Shown here in pieces: positions 20,280-47,095 of a DNA stretch of 64,000 bases. Numbering within the stretch: the stretch's first letter is position 1; every line of letters starts with the position of its first letter. The stretch spans positions 3,343 through 67,342 of the forward strand of contig MVQY01000037.1 of assembly GCA_002067325.1 (NCBI GenBank). The letters are read 5' to 3'. Source of the stretch: Methanobacterium sp. PtaU1.Bin097. Lineage in GTDB: Archaea; Methanobacteriota; Methanobacteria; Methanobacteriales; Methanobacteriaceae. Made by a program: the position numbers and the translations under genes. The notes beneath the pieces were generated by a model. That model saw only the letters and a program-made list of their open reading frames with translations, ran no database searches and was not told the DNA's origin.

Positions 20280-21242
20280 ATGGTAAGTGTCAATGTGGAA
20301 GCGAAAAAAACCGTGGATTTAATGATTAAAAAGGCAGACGAACTCAACATAGCTGTGGATGTCTTAAGCAACGGATCAACCGTGATAGATGCGGGTGTAA
20401 ACGTATCAGGAAGCTTTAAAGCAGGGGAACTTTACACCAAGGTATGTTTAGGTGGGCTGGCCGATGTGGGAATCTCCATCCCTGGAGACCTATCAGAGAA
20501 ATTCGCCCTGCCATCGGTGAAGATCAAAACAGACTTCCCATCCATATCCACCCTGGGTTCCCAGAAAGCAGGATGGTCAGTAAGTGTGGGAGACTTCTTT
20601 GCACTGGGAAGTGGACCAGCACGTGCCCTGGCACTTAAACCCGCAGAAACCTATGAAGAGATAGGATACAAGGACGATGCAGACATAGCCATACTGACCC
20701 TGGAAGCAGACCAGCTACCCGGAACCGATGTAACAGAAGCCATAGCTAAAGACAGCGGAGTGTCACCAGAAAACGTCTATGTACTGGCAGCACCTACATC
20801 ATCCCTGGTAGGCTCTATACAGATATCCGGAAGGGTAGTGGAAAATGGAACCTATAAGATGCTGGAATTCCTCCACTTCGATGTGAATAAGGTAAAACAC
20901 GCAGCCGGAATAGCACCCATCGCACCAGTAGACCCAGACGGACTTAAAGCCATGGGAAAAACCAACGACGCAGTACTATTCGGTGGAAGAACCTACTACT
21001 ATGTGGAATCTGAGGAAGGAGACGACATAAAATCGGTGGCTGAAAAGCTGCCATCATCAGCCTCTGATGGCTATGGCAAACCATTCTTCGACGTCTTCAA
21101 GGAAGCAGAGTTCGATTTCTACAAGATAGACAAAGGCATGTTCGCCCCTGCTGAAGTGGTGATAAACGACTTACGCACTGGGGAAATATTCAAAGCAGGA
21201 TACGTAAACAGCGAACTCCTCCAGAAGTCCTTTGGATTATAA
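20280..21242 (+). CDS. mch: methenyltetrahydromethanopterin cyclohydrolase
   Basis: 320 aa. Full-length resemblance to Mch (VSVN...AGELYTKVCLGGLADV...GSGPARAL...). Confidence 0.92.
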   Translation: MVSVNVEAKKTVDLMIKKADELNIAVDVLSNGSTVIDAGVNVSGSFKAGELYTKVCLGGLADVGISIPGDLSEKFALPSVKIKTDFPSISTLGSQKAGWSVSVGDFFALGSGPARALALKPAETYEEIGYKDDADIAILTLEADQLPGTDVTEAIAKDSGVSPENVYVLAAPTSSLVGSIQISGRVVENGTYKMLEFLHFDVNKVKHAAGIAPIAPVDPDGLKAMGKTNDAVLFGGRTYYYVESEEGDDIKSVAEKLPSSASDGYGKPFFDVFKEAEFDFYKIDKGMFAPAEVVINDLRTGEIFKAGYVNSELLQKSFGL

Positions 21243-21316
21243 AACCCTTAGAACCACTTGAATTATTTAATAAATTTTTAATTTTTTTCCTTGATTTTAA
21301 TGTAATTTGGGGATAG

Positions 21317-21778
<462 letters not shown>

Positions 21779-38115: not shown

Positions 38116-38787
38116 CTAAAAAAATGCATCCAGACTGCTCTGTTTTTCCTTATGAATAATATCCTCCTTAGGATAACCCACAGCCTCTATAATTCGGGTA
38201 ACAGCCGGTAAAACCTGATTATCAATGTAGTATGATGGATCGTACTGGGAGACATCGGCGTCTTCCAGGGGAACCGCCCTTTGACTGATGGCTTCCCTCC
38301 CCCTTACCACCACGTATCTGATGATGGTACCGGGACCAACCTTCCTACCCTTCGCCATGGCCTTTTTAGCAGCCATCACATGGGGTGCGCTTTGAACGTA
38401 TTCCTCGGGGTTTTTGGTTAGCTGGGTGTGGATCACCAGATTTTCCAGGGAGATATTCCCATCCTTTATCTCCTGCATAGTATCCTGAACGATTCTCACG
38501 GCCTTCTGGGGTGATCCTTCCTCCAGCAAGGCCCTTAATACTTTTTCCTGGGTTTTTTTAGCTACAGGGGCCCAGTCTCGCCTGACAAGTTCCAGGCCCT
38601 TTACCACGATGTTGCCGTCCTGTATCAGGGCGTACCGTTTCTTGGTTACGAAGAAGCCCCTCTGGAAAAAACCCTCAAACTCAAGCTCCATACCTTCTGG
38701 AAGGTCCTGATTAACCTGGGAAGTGAAGCTTTGTGCTTTATCTTTGATCTCTAAAAATCGGCTGTTATCATTCAACCAGTACACCAT
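38116..38787 (-). CDS. polB: family-B DNA polymerase, small C-terminal subunit of a split PolB (palm end plus thumb)
   Basis: 223 aa, collinear with the region of euryarchaeal PolB that follows the YxDTD motif: LEFEGFFQRGFFVTKKRYALI (KxY motif), GLELVRRDW, VIHTQLTK, YYIDNQVLPAV. Exonuclease, motif A and DTD are absent. Clean start and stop. Confidence 0.88.
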   Translation of the reverse strand: MVYWLNDNSRFLEIKDKAQSFTSQVNQDLPEGMELEFEGFFQRGFFVTKKRYALIQDGNIVVKGLELVRRDWAPVAKKTQEKVLRALLEEGSPQKAVRIVQDTMQEIKDGNISLENLVIHTQLTKNPEEYVQSAPHVMAAKKAMAKGRKVGPGTIIRYVVVRGREAISQRAVPLEDADVSQYDPSYYIDNQVLPAVTRIIEAVGYPKEDIIHKEKQSSLDAFF

Positions 38788-40566: not shown

Positions 40567-41010
40567 ATGCCAGGTTTATGGGGAAAGCGATTTGTGGCTT
40601 TGATTATTGATGCTTTAATTATCACACTGTTATTATGGGTTATAGTAGCTGTTATTTATCCAGTGATTGTATTACTTAATCTACTTGTACTTTTTAATAT
40701 CTGGGTTCCACTTGCCGCAGTAGTGATCGTGGCCTATTTCACTTACTTTGAAGGTAAATACAGTACCACACCAGGAAAGAACGTTATGAAATTAAAAGTC
40801 AGGGCAATCAAGGGGGAAATAGGTTATAAAAAGACATTAATACGGAATTTATCCAAAATTTTATGGTTCCCACTAGTAGTGGATGTTATAGTGGGCTTTG
40901 CCATGGGAAAACCCAGGGAAAGATACTTGGATCGCTTGGCTAAAACAGAAGTGGTTAAAACAGAGGAAGTGGAAGATTCACAGAAAAATCTGGAACAATC
41001 CACAACTTAA
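40567..41010 (+). CDS. RDD-family membrane protein
   Basis: KRFVALIIDALIITLL start, 3 TM helices, conserved R..D..D spacing (RNLSKILWFPLVVD). Confidence 0.7.
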   Translation: MPGLWGKRFVALIIDALIITLLLWVIVAVIYPVIVLLNLLVLFNIWVPLAAVVIVAYFTYFEGKYSTTPGKNVMKLKVRAIKGEIGYKKTLIRNLSKILWFPLVVDVIVGFAMGKPRERYLDRLAKTEVVKTEEVEDSQKNLEQSTT

Positions 41011-41025
41011 TCTGATTTAGTTCTT

Positions 41026-41157
41026 AAAAAAAATTTTATTCTTTTTTAAATTTTTTTGGAGTTTGTAAAGTTATTGGATGTTGATTTTTTTCGTGTTTGT
41101 GTGTCCATTTTTTTATTTTAGGTTTAGGTAGTTGAGTATTCCTTTGTTGGTTGTGTA
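41026..41157 (+). repeat. copy A of a ~130-bp T/G-rich intergenic repeat
   Basis: Starts 16 nt after the RDD stop. About 90% identical by eye to 42893-43026 (shared core GGAGTTTGTAAAGTTAT...GGTTTAGGTAGTTGAGTATTC...TTGTTGGTT.TGTATCTTGTTTTT). Confidence 0.9.
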
Positions 41158-41469
41158 TCTTGTTTTTATTTTGTTCTGGGTCTGTTTGTCTGTAGTAATT
41201 TTCAATTTTGTTGGATGTTCGTTGTATATATGGGTTTTTCATATTGTGTGAGTCTTTCAAAGTCAGGAATTAATTCAGTGCAAAGCACTAAAACAAGATT
41301 TTCAATGCTATACAATAATATAAAATATCTACCACCAATTATAGGAAAATTCCTTCACAAACTAAGCAAAATATTCAATAAAACAATCAATCACATAGGC
41401 AATGACGATATACCCTCCACAAATGACAAAAAGAACGACACTAACGGTATAACACTACTAGGATACCTG

Positions 41470-41570
41470 AAAAAAAGGATACAAAACAGACCAAGGACTA
41501 AAAATGCATCTAAACTTCGCCGAATACCGATGGACACAAGAAACACCAAAAAAAACTAAAACAGCAACAT
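41470..41570 (-). repeat. copy C: diverged inverted copy of the same repeat
   Basis: The plus strand AAAAAAAGGATACAAAACAGACCAAGGACTAAAAATGCATCTAAAC...GATGGACACAAGAAACACCAAAAAAAAC aligns at roughly 65-70% by eye to the reverse complement of copy A. Confidence 0.6.
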
Positions 41571-41766
41571 TTTAGACAGAACCATGAAATATGCATTTTT
41601 ATGTATAACACCTAATTTATCCAATATTCTTTTATATCTTCGCCGACGTTATACCTTTTTTATATTCGAACTGTTAAATCTATATAACGAATATAAGTCT
41701 TTCTAAATGAACTTATTACAAAGGTTTATATGATATCCAACTAGACCATTTAGTATCTCATATATA

Positions 41767-41864
41767 TCATGAACATTCATGAAGGATTGATCAAAACACA
41801 GATTAAATTCAGAAATTTTTCAATTTTCAGTGAATGATCATGAAAAAATCGTTGAATGATCATA
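41767..41864. promoter_or_regulatory. cluster of TCATGA/TGATCA-core palindromes upstream of the Roadblock gene (candidate operator array)
   Basis: TCATGAA-CA-TTCATGA inverted repeat (41767-41782), TTGATCA (41787-41793), and TGAATGATCAT twice with ATGATCAT palindromes at 41834-41841 and 41856-41863 (22-bp phasing). Confidence 0.35.
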
Positions 41865-41939
41865 GGGGAAATAAGATAATCCGTCTATGACGCTAGACAC
41901 GGAAGGACAATAGTTTATTTGATTTTAGAGGTAGTTTAA

Positions 41940-42284
41940 ATGATAGATAGGGTGCTAAAAGACTTAGGTAGAATTCAAGGTGTGAATGGGTCTTTGGTTG
42001 TTGGAAAGGATGGTTTAATTATAGAAAAAGAAGTCACCTCCGATATAGACTCTGAACTTGTGGGAGCCATGTCTTCAGCTGTCTTCGGTACAGCCGAGAG
42101 ATCTACAGAAGAAATGAAACATGACCACCTTCAACAGGTTATGATAGAGGGTAACAAGGGTAAAACACTGATGATAGACTCCAAAGAGGCTATTTTAGTC
42201 GTAATAACCGATGTAAATATAAATCTCGGACTGATTCGATTGGAAATGAAAAGAAGTTCGGAACGAATAATCGATTTAATATAA
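41940..42284 (+). CDS. Roadblock/LC7 (MglB-like) domain protein
   Basis: 114 aa. ...[17 protein letters not shown]...[11 protein letters not shown]...LVVITD pattern is typical of Roadblock/LC7. GAGGT RBS. Confidence 0.8.
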
Positions 42285-42295
42285 AGGTTGATCAA

Positions 42296-42874
42296 ATGCC
42301 AGAATACAAAAATTACGACGAGTATCTACAAAACATGGGGTTAATTTTGAAAGAGGGCGCCAGCGTACTATGTTTAAAACCAGAAACAAACGCTACCAGA
42401 CTGGGACCGTTCTGTGAAGAAAGAAAGAGTCTGGTATCTGCAAATTCCGTGGGTGCCATAAGATCTATCATCATTACAGGGAGTAAACAGTTTGGCATGG
42501 GGACCATGGGCTCCATACTCAGAATAGCAGGTGGTGAATTTTCATCTCTAAGAGCTAAACAAATGATGGATACAGGGAAAGTGGAGAAAGGAGATGTCCA
42601 AGGCTGGCTTGACATTGTAAAATTTGATTTTGGAAATTGGGGCTACGGCATCCTGACTGCCGAAAGCATTGAAGACGAAAAAATCACTATCAAAATCGAT
42701 GAATGCATGAGCTGTTCTGGAATGCCAATTTTAGGTAATCCCGTATGTTATTATGAAGGAGGACGAATTACCGGAGGTCTTTCAGAGATAACAGGCGAAA
42801 AATGGCAGTTTATAGAGGTGAACTGCTGGGCACTTGGAGATGATTTCTGTAGATTCGAACTAACCAAGATTTAA
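42296..42874 (+). CDS. V4R (4-vinyl reductase) domain protein
   Basis: The C-terminal half carries the V4R Cys pattern (IDECMSCSG...PVCYYEGGRITGGL...VNCWALGDDFCRFEL). Starts 11 nt after the Roadblock stop. Confidence 0.8.
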   Translation: MPEYKNYDEYLQNMGLILKEGASVLCLKPETNATRLGPFCEERKSLVSANSVGAIRSIIITGSKQFGMGTMGSILRIAGGEFSSLRAKQMMDTGKVEKGDVQGWLDIVKFDFGNWGYGILTAESIEDEKITIKIDECMSCSGMPILGNPVCYYEGGRITGGLSEITGEKWQFIEVNCWALGDDFCRFELTKI

Positions 42875-42892
42875 CTACGTGTTAAACTTCAA

Positions 42893-43026
42893 TTTATTTT
42901 TTTTAAATTTTTTGGAGTTTGTAAAGTTATGGGGTGTTGATTTTTTTTCGTGTTTTTTGTGTCTATTTTTTCATTTTTAGGTTTAGGTAGTTGAGTATTC
43001 TTTTGTTGGTTTTGTATCTTGTTTTT
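42893..43026 (+). repeat. copy B of the ~130-bp T/G-rich intergenic repeat
   Basis: Starts 19 nt after the V4R stop, in the same orientation as copy A. Lies in the convergent spacer with the minus-strand gene ending at 43068. Confidence 0.9.
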
Positions 43027-43067
43027 CAAGAAAAATGCCTCAACACCCAAAACTTTACACCCTCTAT

Positions 43068-43331
43068 TCATTCCACTATTCTAACTTCCTGCACCGATGG
43101 TTTGGCTATAACTCTAGCAATTATCAGGGTGGCTACCACTGCTATTATGGTTATCAAAATAGCGTATATTAACAATCCTGTAATACCGCTGTCTGCCTGG
43201 AAGTACTGGAGTATTATTGCCTTAATAGCTTCATTCCAGGCGAGTGCCGCTATTAATCCAAATGCTGTGGTCATCAAAGTGGCAATTGTTTGAGATACCT
43301 GACCTTTTATATCTTTTACATCCTCTTTCAT
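43068..43331 (-). CDS. small membrane protein (DUF5654-like)
   Basis: ATG 43331 (MKEDVKD...) with GGAGGT RBS 6 nt upstream. Two TM helices. Family name is from memory only. Confidence 0.6.
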   Translation of the reverse strand: MKEDVKDIKGQVSQTIATLMTTAFGLIAALAWNEAIKAIILQYFQADSGITGLLIYAILITIIAVVATLIIARVIAKPSVQEVRIVE

Positions 43332-43515
43332 CAGTTTACCTCCAATCAAACTATGTTACTATTCTATTAAAACTTATTAAAGTAATTTCACCTAAATTTC
43401 TCCTTGAATGGTTTAAATTCAATGAATTTGTTTAAAAAAATTAAAATAATAGGTTAATTAAAAAACATCAATTGACGAATTAAAAATAAAAACTAAAACT
43501 CCAATAAAGGATACC

Positions 43516-44178: not shown

Positions 44179-44273
44179 CTTGTTTTATTTAAAAAGGGGA
44201 TTTCATTGATTGATTTAAAATAGGGATTTATAAGGATAATTAAAAATTCTATGGATTTAAAGGAGAATACACC

Positions 44274-45527
44274 ATGAAATCAGAAGATCTATTTAACGAA
44301 GCTAAAAAATATCTACCTGGAGGGGTTGATTCCCCGGTAAGGGCCTTCAAACCCTACCCTTTCTTTGCTGAATGTGCTTCCAGCTCACATCTAAAGGACG
44401 TGGATGGTAAAGATTATATAGATTATTGTCTGGCCTACGGTCCCCTGGTTCTAGGACATTCCCACCCAGACATAGTTAAAGCAGTGGAAAAACAGCTTGA
44501 ACTGGGTACAGCCTACGGTGTGCCCACTCAGAATGAGATAGAATTAGCTAAGTTGGTTACTGGGAGGGTGCCCTGTGCCGACATGGTGAGATTTGTAAAT
44601 TCAGGTACAGAGGCCACCATGAGTGCTATAAGACTCGCGAGAGCCGTAACCGGCAGGAAGAAGATCGTTAAATTTGAAGGATCCTACCACGGAGCTCACG
44701 ATTACGTGCTGGTGAAATCCGGATCAGGGGCCATGGGGTTGCCTGATTCACCAGGAGTACCCGAGGAAACCACTAAAAATACCGTACTGATTCCATTTAA
44801 TGATACTGAGGCAGTGGAGGATTTGATCCGAGAAGAATGGGAGGAGATAGCTACCATTATCGTTGAACCGGTGATGGGCAACGTGGGCTGCATCCCACCA
44901 AGAGAGGGTTACCTTGAATTTTTACGCCAGATCACCAGTGAAAACGGCATCATACTCATCTTCGACGAGGTGATAACTGGTTTTAGACTGGCAGAGGGAG
45001 GTGCTCAGGAATATTACGGTGTAACACCCGATCTGGTAACTTTTGGGAAAATATTAGGTGGTGGATTCCCTATAGGGGCAATATCTGGAAAACGAGAGTA
45101 CATGGAGAAATTAGCCCCGCAGGGGGATGTTTACCAGGCAGGTACCTTTAATGGAAATCCTATATCAATTACAGCCGGTCTCACCACACTGGAACTTCTC
45201 GATAAAAACTTCTACACCCAGCTGGAGAAGAAAGGCCAGTACCTGCGAAAGGGTATTGGAGATATTTTAGAAGAACAGGATTTAGATTATAAGGTTGCTG
45301 GATTAAGCTCCATGTTCCAGATATACTTCACTGGTAAGGATGTGCACGATTACCAGGATGCAAAAACAGCCGATACTCAGAAGTTCGACAAATATTTCCA
45401 TGAACTCCTGGAAAAAGGGGTGTTTATTCCCCCATCCCAGTTTGAATGCTGCTTTATCTCCTTAAAACACTCTGAAGATGACTTAGAACATACCTTAGAG
45501 GCTGTTGGGGAAGCACTGAAGGGATAA
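44274..45527 (+). CDS. hemL: glutamate-1-semialdehyde 2,1-aminomutase
   Basis: [12 protein letters not shown] start, class-III aminotransferase motifs. PLP lysine context [11 protein letters not shown]. Confidence 0.95.
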
Positions 45528-45595
45528 ATTTACCAAACTCCTTTTAAATTAATCTATTAAATTTCTTTTAAATCAATCAATGGAGTCCCCTTTTT

Positions 45596-45652
45596 AAATA
45601 AATAAAAACAGTAAAACCACGACTTTCAAATAAATAAAAACAGTAGAACCAC
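45596..45652. repeat. 2 x 25-nt direct repeat; one copy encodes the C-terminus and stop of the minus-strand gene, the other lies just downstream
   Basis: AAATAAATAAAAACAGTAAAACCAC (45596-45620) and AAATAAATAAAAACAGTAGAACCAC (45628-45652), period 32, one mismatch. Confidence 0.9.
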
Positions 45653-46204
45653 CACTACAACGATAACTACCAGAATAATAAATAAAGGAGTTTTTAAAAA
45701 ACCAGTAAATGTGAGTTTCTCACTCTCATATGCCTTGGTCCGCTGTTCTCTTACGATGGACATCAACCTATCTTCATTATCTGAGATATCATCCAGGAGT
45801 CTTTTCTGATTTTTGATATCAGCCTGCAGATTTCTTTCGTTTAAAACATCCCATACTGTCCATCTTTCCTCTTTGATCTCGTTGAGCAGTTCTTCCTGGA
45901 TATGTATATGTTTGGAAAGATTTTTAATTATGGCCTTTCTTTTTGCTGATTTACTCTTAAGCAAGGTCAGTAACTGCTCTATTTCTTCTGTATCGTCCAA
46001 TTCATCAAGCCCGGAATAATGATCAGAAGATTGGGTAGGTAGACTTTCAATGAATTCTAACTCCCATCCACATTCACATGAGACAAAATCATCCTTACTC
46101 TCACCATCCTGAAGACGGTAGTAACCCTGACATTTTCTACAATACAGATACCCATTAGATTCAAGTGGGAGTTGTTGTTTAGTAGCATCTTTAGGTGTGG
46201 TCAT
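45626..46204 (-). CDS. Zn-ribbon / coiled-coil / C-terminal TM (tail-anchored) protein, function unknown
   Basis: 192 aa. CRKC...CEC ribbon, long charged helix, C-terminal PLFIILVVIVVVVVLLFLFI anchor. Confidence 0.6.
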   Translation of the reverse strand: MTTPKDATKQQLPLESNGYLYCRKCQGYYRLQDGESKDDFVSCECGWELEFIESLPTQSSDHYSGLDELDDTEEIEQLLTLLKSKSAKRKAIIKNLSKHIHIQEELLNEIKEERWTVWDVLNERNLQADIKNQKRLLDDISDNEDRLMSIVREQRTKAYESEKLTFTGFLKTPLFIILVVIVVVVVLLFLFI

Positions 46205-46339
46205 TTTACAAACCTTATATATCGCTGTTAATGATTAGTAACTTATTGCCTATATATATTACCCTTTTTTTATTAGGTAAAATCATATATTAATAGAGAT
46301 CAAACTTGGCTCGGTTAAAAAGTTATGGAAGGGTATTAA

Positions 46340-47035
46340 ATGACGATAATTGCTGGTGTGGGGGGAAATAAAAATATAATAACCGCCTCACAGAGGGTAG
46401 ATTTCCCTGTGCAACTGGTGGATTCTCCAGAAGAATTTGTAGAGTCCATAATAGGTAATAAAGCTCAGGCCTATGTAAGGGGGTCCCTGGGTGCTTCCCA
46501 GATTATGGCTGGACTGAAAAACAGGTATAAGGAATTCTATCGTGCGTCTTTTATAGAAATTAAGGGGCATAAATTTTTCCTGGCACCAGTGGGCATCGAT
46601 GAAGGGGACCATCTGGAACAGAAACTGCAGATAATAAAGCTGGGGGCACGATTCCTGGAAAAAATTAATATTAAACCTAAAATAGCCATACTTTCCGGTG
46701 GCAGAGTCCAGGATCTTGGAAGAAGCCAGAAGATCGATAGATCCATTGCAGAGGGAGAGTTGTTAACAGAGATCACAAGGAATAAATATCCAGTTAAACA
46801 TCATCATATATTGATTGAAGAAGCAATTCATGATAATTCAAATTTTATACTGGCACCAGATGGTATCACCGGGAATTTAATATTCAGATCTCTTGTTTTA
46901 TCAGGATGTGGAGAAAGCCATGGCGCTGTAACCCTGGGAATGGACGTGATATTAATCGATACTTCACGATCCCTCACAGTGGAAGGTTATACCCGGGCGT
47001 TGAAATTCGCCAAATACCTGATGGATTCAGTGTGA
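46340..47035 (+). CDS. methanogenesis marker protein 4 (Mmp4/MtxX-like, phosphotransacetylase-like fold)
   Basis: 231 aa. ...AYVRGSL...[11 protein letters not shown]...IAILSGGR...[16 protein letters not shown]. Assignment is from memory of the marker family. Confidence 0.6.
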
Positions 47036-47095
47036 TGAGGTATTAGAATTGATGGAAGAGGAAAGTTGAAATTCGCCAAATACCTGATGGATTCA
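46999..47095. repeat. perfect 31-bp direct duplication of the 3' coding end of the MtxX-like gene, 66-bp period
   Basis: GTTGAAATTCGCCAAATACCTGATGGATTCA at 46999-47029 (codes ...[10 protein letters not shown]) and again at 47065-47095, downstream of the stop. Confidence 0.95.

Follow-up and report, generated by a model that had tools for sequence, protein, structure and literature searches.

Pseudo-compound (IS26-type) and compound transposons hold their passenger genes between same-orientation repeats derived from insertion sequences (ISs), and such repeats permit one IS copy and the passenger to loop out together as a circle. [quoted passage not shown] A locus with likenesses to each of these is described here from a 64,000-nt stretch of Methanobacterium sp. 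PtaU1.Bin097 (GenBank GCA_002067325.1, contig MVQY01000037.1, positions 3,343 to 67,342), hereafter the window, in which two direct repeats of about 132 nt bracket a Roadblock/LC7 gene and a V4R-domain gene between an RDD-family membrane protein gene and a DUF5654 gene. Sequence comparison indicates that the repeats are probably same-orientation right-end stubs of a decayed IS flanking a relocated cassette, an arrangement resembling a pseudo-compound transposon.

The resemblance extends to setting as well as outline, as the block is a precise insertion in an intergenic spacer with flanks conserved in relatives and with no target-site duplication. The differences are nevertheless considerable. 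The IS copies here would be dead stubs of 132-225 nt, the transposase appears ISL3/IS66/ISH6-like rather than IS6/IS26, and the passengers are archaeal signaling genes of a housekeeping type instead of resistance genes. Further, we infer the mechanism only from the scar that it left, and in other genomic contexts the cassette is found without the repeat.

The Direct Repeats

Copies A (41035-41167) and B (42893-43026) align at 91.2% identity over 136 columns (E = 5e-45, blastn within the window), with 1,858 nt from the start of one to the start of the other. Their two longest stretches of exact identity, 25 and 30 nt in length, are each confined to those two places, against none expected from shuffles of the 64 kb. 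The first-pass annotation, made from the letters of the sequence, had described a pair of ~130-nt repeats in the same orientation and about 90% identical, and this is borne out. Its placement of copy B stands, whereas copy A, which it set at 41026-41157, lies ~10 nt further to the right. It had also held that the copies differ mostly by 1-nt indels in T runs, which is not so: about seven substitutions separate them, as against three to four short indels, the latter in T runs. Likewise, a plus strand called almost pure T/G is strongly skewed but falls short of purity (T+G is 80% in copy A and 83% in copy B, compared with 50% for the window). The labels given to the RDD, Roadblock, and V4R genes agree with Pfam, and the bracketed unit does contain what had been taken as the largest non-coding gap, 41011-41939 being longer than any other part of the window that lacks a sizeable open reading frame (ORF). 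Had the unit been a generic intergenic repeat, it would be expected at many unrelated loci; no copies were found elsewhere in a limited search.

Copy A begins 25 nt beyond the RDD stop codon and copy B 19 nt beyond that of V4R, and in each copy the strand that is sense for the gene upstream has four to five tracts of 5-8 T. The similarity between them reaches ~25 T-rich nt outside the inferred IS end, and 1-nt and 2-nt indels within the repeat differ between strains. An inverted third copy, at 41468-41574, matches copy B in reverse complement at 65% identity across 107 nt (E = 4e-9), and the outer 25 nt of the repeat recur inverted (20-25 nt) in a short "box" at 43036-43063; the first-pass annotation had noted neither. 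The 64-kb window holds no further close copy of the 132-nt repeat, and two scans of viral collections gave seed-length chance matches and nothing more.

Probable Transposase Origin of the Repeat

The 132-nt repeat appears to combine the final ~30 codons of a DDE transposase gene, now decayed, with an IS terminus. The clearest trace of this gene is ORF 41215-41559 (+), which has 24 homologs, the best outside the species at E = 2.4e-14 (phmmer, 1.84 billion representative proteins). The long homologs (453-470 aa) align with it through their last ~90 residues only; they possess an N-terminal zinc ribbon, DDE-like motifs, a C-terminal "(S/K)TNN.(L/I)E" segment, and a long Lys-rich insertion. When a profile built from 15 transposase C-termini was run against the six-frame translation of the window, the five best hits all belonged to copies C, A, and B and agreed in their profile coordinates (E = 2.4e-25, 1.7e-4, 0.008, 2.6, and 2.6, the last two lying in copies A and B), where C denotes the inverted third copy and the longer remnant that contains it. 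Remnant C accounts for the strongest of these (hidden Markov model [HMM] E = 2.4e-25, with 1.7e-4 in a shifted frame) and is also recovered by tblastn (E = 8e-21), whereas remnant A reaches E = 0.008 and matches residues 407-445 of homolog P0138 at 41% identity over 39 aa (tblastn). The two remnants lie back to back with their right ends outward. The apparent non-coding gap is thus best read as debris of this IS, in which the minus-strand remnant A abuts the longer plus-strand remnant C. The C-terminal codons of the transposase are rich in AAA, AAC, ACA, and CAA (Lys/Asn/Thr/Gln-rich), and the plus strand is T/G-rich because this A/C-rich 3' end lies antisense to RDD and V4R, a source of the skew that the first-pass annotation had not recognized.

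As to its affiliation, the transposase seems distantly ISL3/IS66/ISH6-like, and loosely attached at that. The likeness lies in the length of the homologs, their zinc ribbon and DDE-like motifs, and the passage of one of them, P0138, over the Pfam threshold for DDE_Tnp_ISL3 (24.1 bits, cut-off 23), which P0146 and P0149 do not pass. Against it stand NCBIfam matches to ISL3, IS66, and ISH6 of 23-40 bits, far under the cut-offs of 180-240, the Lys-rich insertion, and the fact that the window retains the last ~100 residues only. The family may represent a separate methanogen-associated lineage. A full-length homolog, 34.5% identical (473 aa, "hypothetical protein"), is encoded on plasmid pNP174 of Methanosphaera sp. 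ISO3-F5 (NZ_CP118754.2, 64063-65484); terminal repeats were looked for around it and none was clear. The 3' region of this Methanosphaera gene is also strongly A/C-rich, and the transposase family appears to be unnamed in that annotation.

A MITE-Like Stub at Copy B

Copy B and the box together (42911-43065, ~155 nt) have the makeup of a MITE-like, internally deleted IS. The outer 25 nt of the repeat, GGAGTTTGTAAAGTTATGGGGTGTTGA, are those found inverted in the box, and the gapped motif TGTAAAGTT..GGTGTTGA occurs in the window only at 42920-42940 (+) and 43040-43059 (-), with 0 occurrences expected. Nucleotides 42915-42940 pair with the box in a hairpin (z = -3.25) that none of 200 shuffles matches, and this inverted-repeat pair is kept in all strains. 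Read in the sense of the transposase, the layout is a left inverted repeat, 13 nt, an internal deletion, the last ~30 codons, and a right inverted repeat. Small size, terminal inverted repeats of ~25 nt, retention of the final codons, and residence in an intergenic terminator region all recall MITEs and solo IS ends. The locus differs from them in having no target-site duplication and in that its copies were found here only, in a limited search of the window, metagenome contigs, and a protein database. Remnant A-C differs further in pairing one right end with another, back to back, instead of with a left end; its ends are just weakly alike in the inverted-repeat test, and as one long hairpin it folds no better than shuffles (z = -0.44).

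Insertion and Relocation of the Cassette

The cassette is well bounded by comparison with relatives. In four related species, whose RDD homologs are 86, 83, 76, and 67% identical, RDD and DUF5654 are separated by 39, 27, 38, and 171 nt, respectively, within a conserved order of genes (Mg-chelatase-like, HAD, PolB fragment, S8e, AIRS-like, RDD, DUF5654 on the opposite strand, CbiC, and aminotransferase). The Roadblock-V4R genes and the repeat are absent from the RDD/DUF5654 site in all four. The V4R protein is unchanged on many contigs that include a 1.47-Mb contig of GCA_013402945.1, with the same gene order and ~99% identity. V4R homologs 73-86% identical, still paired with Roadblock, occur in two other contexts (SHMT..LigD_N / DUF192-MAT and HTH_5.. 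/ AA-kinase-DUF166) with no repeat around them, and a search of the window for the genes of these donor contexts found none.

The closest relative, contig L040 (V4R 95% identical), is the most informative. There, the pair lies between the gene for methenyl-H4MPT cyclohydrolase (mch) and a riboflavin-synthase-like gene, which in the window (20280-21242 and 21320-21778) adjoin at a distance of 77 nt. The L040 flanks match window positions 21583-21310 and 21244-21122, and the corresponding interval (L040 265-2165) holds the cassette in reverse orientation. L040 shares 41647-42912 with the present locus (1,286 columns, 92.8% identity), and the match ends at 42912, copy B's GGAG starting at 42911. 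An inverted-repeat-like box also lies upstream of Roadblock in L040; the shared cassette and this box therefore suggest that the cassette already carried an IS end before it came to lie at separate sites in the two lineages. A search of L040 beyond V4R for a diverged copy B gave no significant result (10 of 300 shuffles score as well).

Because the orthologous site is empty in relatives and the pair is located elsewhere, the block 41011-43067 is a lineage-specific insertion, and the Roadblock-V4R pair has changed place repeatedly, taking up four different sites in closely related Methanobacterium lineages. Of the origins considered in the first-pass annotation, an insertion or segmental-duplication junction thus gains support, as the block with both repeats is missing at RDD/DUF5654 in four species and the pair lies elsewhere. 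The comparison with relatives that it had proposed shows the 1.87-kb unit to be absent with conserved flanks, and the contrary outcome, relatives with Roadblock-V4R at the same site and no repeats, was not seen, these species being without the cassette there. The first 47 nt of the block (41011-41057) are probably the native bidirectional RDD/DUF5654 terminator spacer; the last ~25 nt of this spacer align with the stretch 3' of the V4R stop codon.

Origin of the Arrangement and Competing Explanations

Transposase sequence continues inward from copy A, and a left inverted repeat adjoins copy B, so that the two are likely to derive from IS copies that were once longer and pointed the same way, one to each side of the cassette. 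In the sequence of events proposed here as the most economical, one IS copy would have entered the T-rich RDD/DUF5654 terminator spacer. A DNA unit with the same IS and the cassette would then have joined the resident IS, either through recombination between IS copies or through an IS26-style translocatable-unit reaction. The product would have been IS-cassette-IS in direct orientation without target-site duplications, and later independent deletions would have eroded the IS copies to stubs.

Several points weigh against this proposal. Copy B alone has no significant match at the protein level (E = 2.6 with the profile), and its assignment as transposase follows from its 91% DNA identity to A, and from copy C. 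No intact copy of the IS was recovered, with no full-length copy in any locus examined and its true ends undefined. There is no target-site duplication at 41058/41577 (A-C), at 42911/43065 (copy B and box), or around the whole block, although recombination that rearranged the copies would be expected to leave none. When a genome collection was searched for an 18-mer from the core, four chance bacterial matches (cyanobacteria and others) and no methanogen came back, the source genome not being among the hits, and a 19-mer scan of metagenomes returned just three same-species contigs in known contexts and two unrelated matches. The order of events is itself reconstructed from the scar. Finally, the similarity of A and B in the ~25 outer T-rich nt fits a single flank-including duplication equally well.

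That last point belongs to an alternative explanation, namely a plain segmental duplication in which a ~132-nt piece (the V4R 3' flank and adjoining sequence) was copied behind RDD when a longer-than-unit fragment of a tandem or circular cassette inserted. Any old IS sequence in the repeat would then be incidental, the transposase having had no role in making the pair. The extension of the similarity into T-rich DNA, which by comparison with L040 belongs natively to the 3' flank of V4R, the lack of target-site duplications, and the existence of 1,856-nt circular contigs (see below) would all suit such an event. It is nonetheless unlikely: the inward continuation of A as transposase (to 41269) and the left inverted repeat at B point to longer IS copies at both places, the sequences behind A and B differ at once and so do not form a simple concatemer, and the same T-run/A-run layout follows RDD in relatives, so that the flank similarity may be low-complexity convergence. 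Integron-like recombination sites, either attC-like (a CALIN-type cluster) or the attL/attR of an integrated element, are suggested by the direct repeats of similar length and high mutual identity around a short gene cassette, by the presence of the cassette at several genomic sites, and by the circular-junction contigs. This origin is highly improbable, given that the 10 kb to each side contain no gene for an integrase or any other recombinase, that the repeat has no internal inverted repeat and a composition that bars an attC hairpin, that the empty site of relatives holds no att-like copy, and that the cassette occurs in other contexts and genomes without the repeat, which appears instead to be transposase-derived. 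The attC/att-site reading was rejected on the T/G composition and the lack of a recombinase within 10 kb, and is close to refuted.

Two further explanations invoke function rather than movement. Selection could maintain the repeat as a functional RNA or terminator, that is, a multi-T-run terminator or 3' untranslated region (UTR) of RDD and V4R, or an unstructured A/C-rich small RNA of the minus strand. The position of the copies 25 or 19 nt past stop codons, each with four to five sense-strand T runs, is what a terminator would show, and variants common to A and B within strains could be homogenization. Yet Rfam has no match in the repeats at gathering thresholds or even at E <= 1, a strand with 80% T+G is unable to fold on itself, the closest relative has no such unit behind V4R and the other relatives have none at all, its 1-nt and 2-nt indels vary by strain, and transposase codons account for the sequence. 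A shared 3'-UTR, terminator, or small-RNA module, also put forward in the first-pass annotation, is consequently not supported as an origin, and maintenance by selection is improbable. Less credible still is that the repeats encode paralogous small basic proteins (minus-strand ORFs 41036-41260 and 42889-43071). These frames are open for 74 and 60 codons and are annotated by gene callers in several assemblies, but they differ across the repeat middle, strain-specific 1-nt indels alter the C-terminus, the protein database matches them solely to this locus within the species, no Pfam family scores above threshold, and composition by itself makes stop codons scarce on a T-poor strand; on the frame-breaking indels and the absence of homologs they were rejected as genes. 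Public assemblies annotate 41036-41260 (-), 42889-43071 (-), and 41215-41559 (+) as hypothetical proteins of 48-109 aa with strain-dependent ends, and these annotations of transposase debris are likely spurious.

Whatever its origin, the repeat may matter for transcription today. Oligo-T tracts terminate archaeal transcription, and the T runs of the stubs should therefore end the RDD and V4R transcripts. T runs are missing from the minus strand of copy B, and for this reason DUF5654 transcripts may run antisense into V4R. A bacterial-type promoter and terminator scan was uninformative, yielding 11 promoter-like sites where 8.3 were expected and no hairpin terminators. A replication origin at the locus was considered and rejected, as there is no skew switch.

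Possible Looping Out and Exchange Between the Copies

The first-pass annotation had also raised the prospect of a cassette able to loop out by homologous recombination. Contigs with the corresponding junctions do exist, and hybrid A/B ORFs from them are present in the protein database. A deletion form (RDD, one hybrid repeat, DUF5654) is present in three contigs of 21-42 kb from one JGI sample, and a circle junction (V4R, repeat, 41168 onward) in Logan contigs of 1,886 nt that represent at least three runs, each with 30-nt terminal overlaps that close it to a 1,856-nt cycle. In L002-type strains, A and B have exact segments of 32 and 52 nt in common, and the hybrid junctions all carry one A-type middle and switch inside these segments. 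Such an anatomy is that of mis-pairing at a collapsed repeat in a small-k assembly graph, which gives substantial grounds to suspect an artifact. Two JGI contigs point the same way: one stops at a 31-nt direct repeat elsewhere, and the other leaves out a 66-nt unit between two such repeats. Looping out is thus conceivable but unproven: the deletion and circle junctions are there, but a small-k assembler makes the same forms. Real excision is the less likely reading of these contigs, though far from negligible. In addition, the JGI contigs Ga0334882_1015252, Ga0334892_1010649, and Ga0334885_1031259 begin or end inside A or B; with three same-species contigs stopping within the copies, the 132-nt repeat evidently breaks short-read assemblies at this locus.

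Exchange without loss is suggested by other data. Strain variants that are mosaic between A and B are seen in large-k assemblies, which suggests gene conversion. A test of concerted evolution gave no overall signal, the mean A-B distance being 21.6 within strains and 22.1 between them; since these distances are the same, the case for gene conversion is confined to individual mosaic variants. We infer that direct repeats 91-93% identical serve as substrates for gene conversion and, rarely, for deletion or circularization of the 1,856-nt unit. A bolder proposal would make the 1,856-nt unit an active translocatable unit in an archaeon, excised as a circle, re-entering at T-rich terminators or resident IS copies, and driven in trans by an undescribed methanogen-specific ISL3/ISH6-like transposase. 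It would explain four sites in close lineages together with circular and deleted forms in independent assemblies, and is best regarded as speculative and rather unlikely.

Feature Map and Neighboring Sequences

The features of the locus are collected in Table 1.

Table 1. Features of the Roadblock-V4R locus and of the corresponding empty site, in window coordinates.
Feature	Position	Strand	Basis
RDD-family membrane protein gene, left flank	40567-41010	+	Pfam PF06271, E = 5e-17; orthologs 67-86% identical, directly beside DUF5654
Lineage-specific block between the RDD and DUF5654 stop codons	41011-43067		Spacer of 27, 38, 39, or 171 nt in relatives
T-run/A-run spacer	41011-41057		T-run, A-run, T-run layout as in 27-39 nt spacers of relatives
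Direct repeat copy A, putative last ~30 transposase codons and IS right-end inverted repeat (about 41058-41084)	41035-41167	-	91% identity to B; translation matches transposase C-termini
Putative transposase remnant A, frameshifted, profile positions 47-97 of 102	41058-41269	-	hmmsearch E = 0.008 (six-frame window; fragment 41039-41269); tblastn
Putative transposase remnant C, C-terminal ~100 residues, frameshift near 41478	41272-41577	+	phmmer, tblastn, HMM; last ~107 nt (41468-41574) are the inverted, diverged third repeat copy
Upstream (promoter) region of Roadblock gene, moves with cassette	41647-41939	+	Inside the 92.8%-identical match to L040
Roadblock/LC7 gene, passenger	41940-42284	+	Pfam PF03259 (Robl_LC7), E = 2e-18
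V4R-domain gene, passenger	42296-42874	+	Pfam PF02830, E = 3e-17; 73-95%-identical homologs in other contexts
Direct repeat copy B, ~18 nt of T-rich V4R 3' flank, then from 42911 (GGAG...) putative IS right end and last ~30 transposase codons	42893-43026	-	DNA identity to A; L040 divergence point
Box, inverted copy of the outer 25 nt of the repeat, read as IS left inverted repeat	43036-43063	+	Motif, strain, and hairpin tests
DUF5654 gene, right flank, convergent with RDD	43068-43349	-	Pfam PF18898, E = 7e-25; adjoins RDD in relatives
Empty site of this genome, spacer of 77 nt separating mch from the riboflavin-synthase-like gene	21243-21319		L040 has the Roadblock-V4R cassette there

Other repeats lie close by. 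A 37-nt inverted repeat at 44184-44220 and 45566-45602 (95% complementary, and 82-84% over ~63 nt) brackets a class-III aminotransferase gene (44274-45527), with a 32-nt tandem duplication, 91% identical, beside it at 45592-45655. An exact 31-nt direct repeat at 46999-47029 and 47065-47095, 66 nt apart, falls at the 3' end of a gene at ~46339-47034, the second copy lying just downstream. This site varies by strain, with called products of 231, 239, and 264 aa and one contig without the 66-nt unit, and the variation reflects either a variable tandem repeat or assembly collapse. Further upstream, a 223-aa ORF (38116-38787, -) has a partial match to a family-B DNA polymerase domain (PF00136) and stands beside S8e in all relatives; it is presumably the split PolB typical of Methanobacteriales.

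Implications

On the reading preferred here, the repeats are the leftover ends of a dead transposable element around a moved two-gene block, an ordinary kind of genome rearrangement. The interest of the locus is accordingly modest in general terms, and resides in its being a clear and well-bounded example, from a methanogen, of a housekeeping-type gene pair relocated in association with an IS, with empty sites preserved both in relatives (RDD/DUF5654) and in this genome (mch/riboflavin synthase). Recognition that the largest "non-coding" gap is apparently transposase debris is useful for annotation, given that gene callers name spurious small ORFs there, and it flags a poorly classified transposase family. 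The metagenome contigs carry a caution of their own, namely that "deletion" and "circle" forms at 130-nt repeats can be products of assembly. Should excision prove to be real, however, the cassette would offer an archaeal parallel to the translocatable units of the IS26 type.

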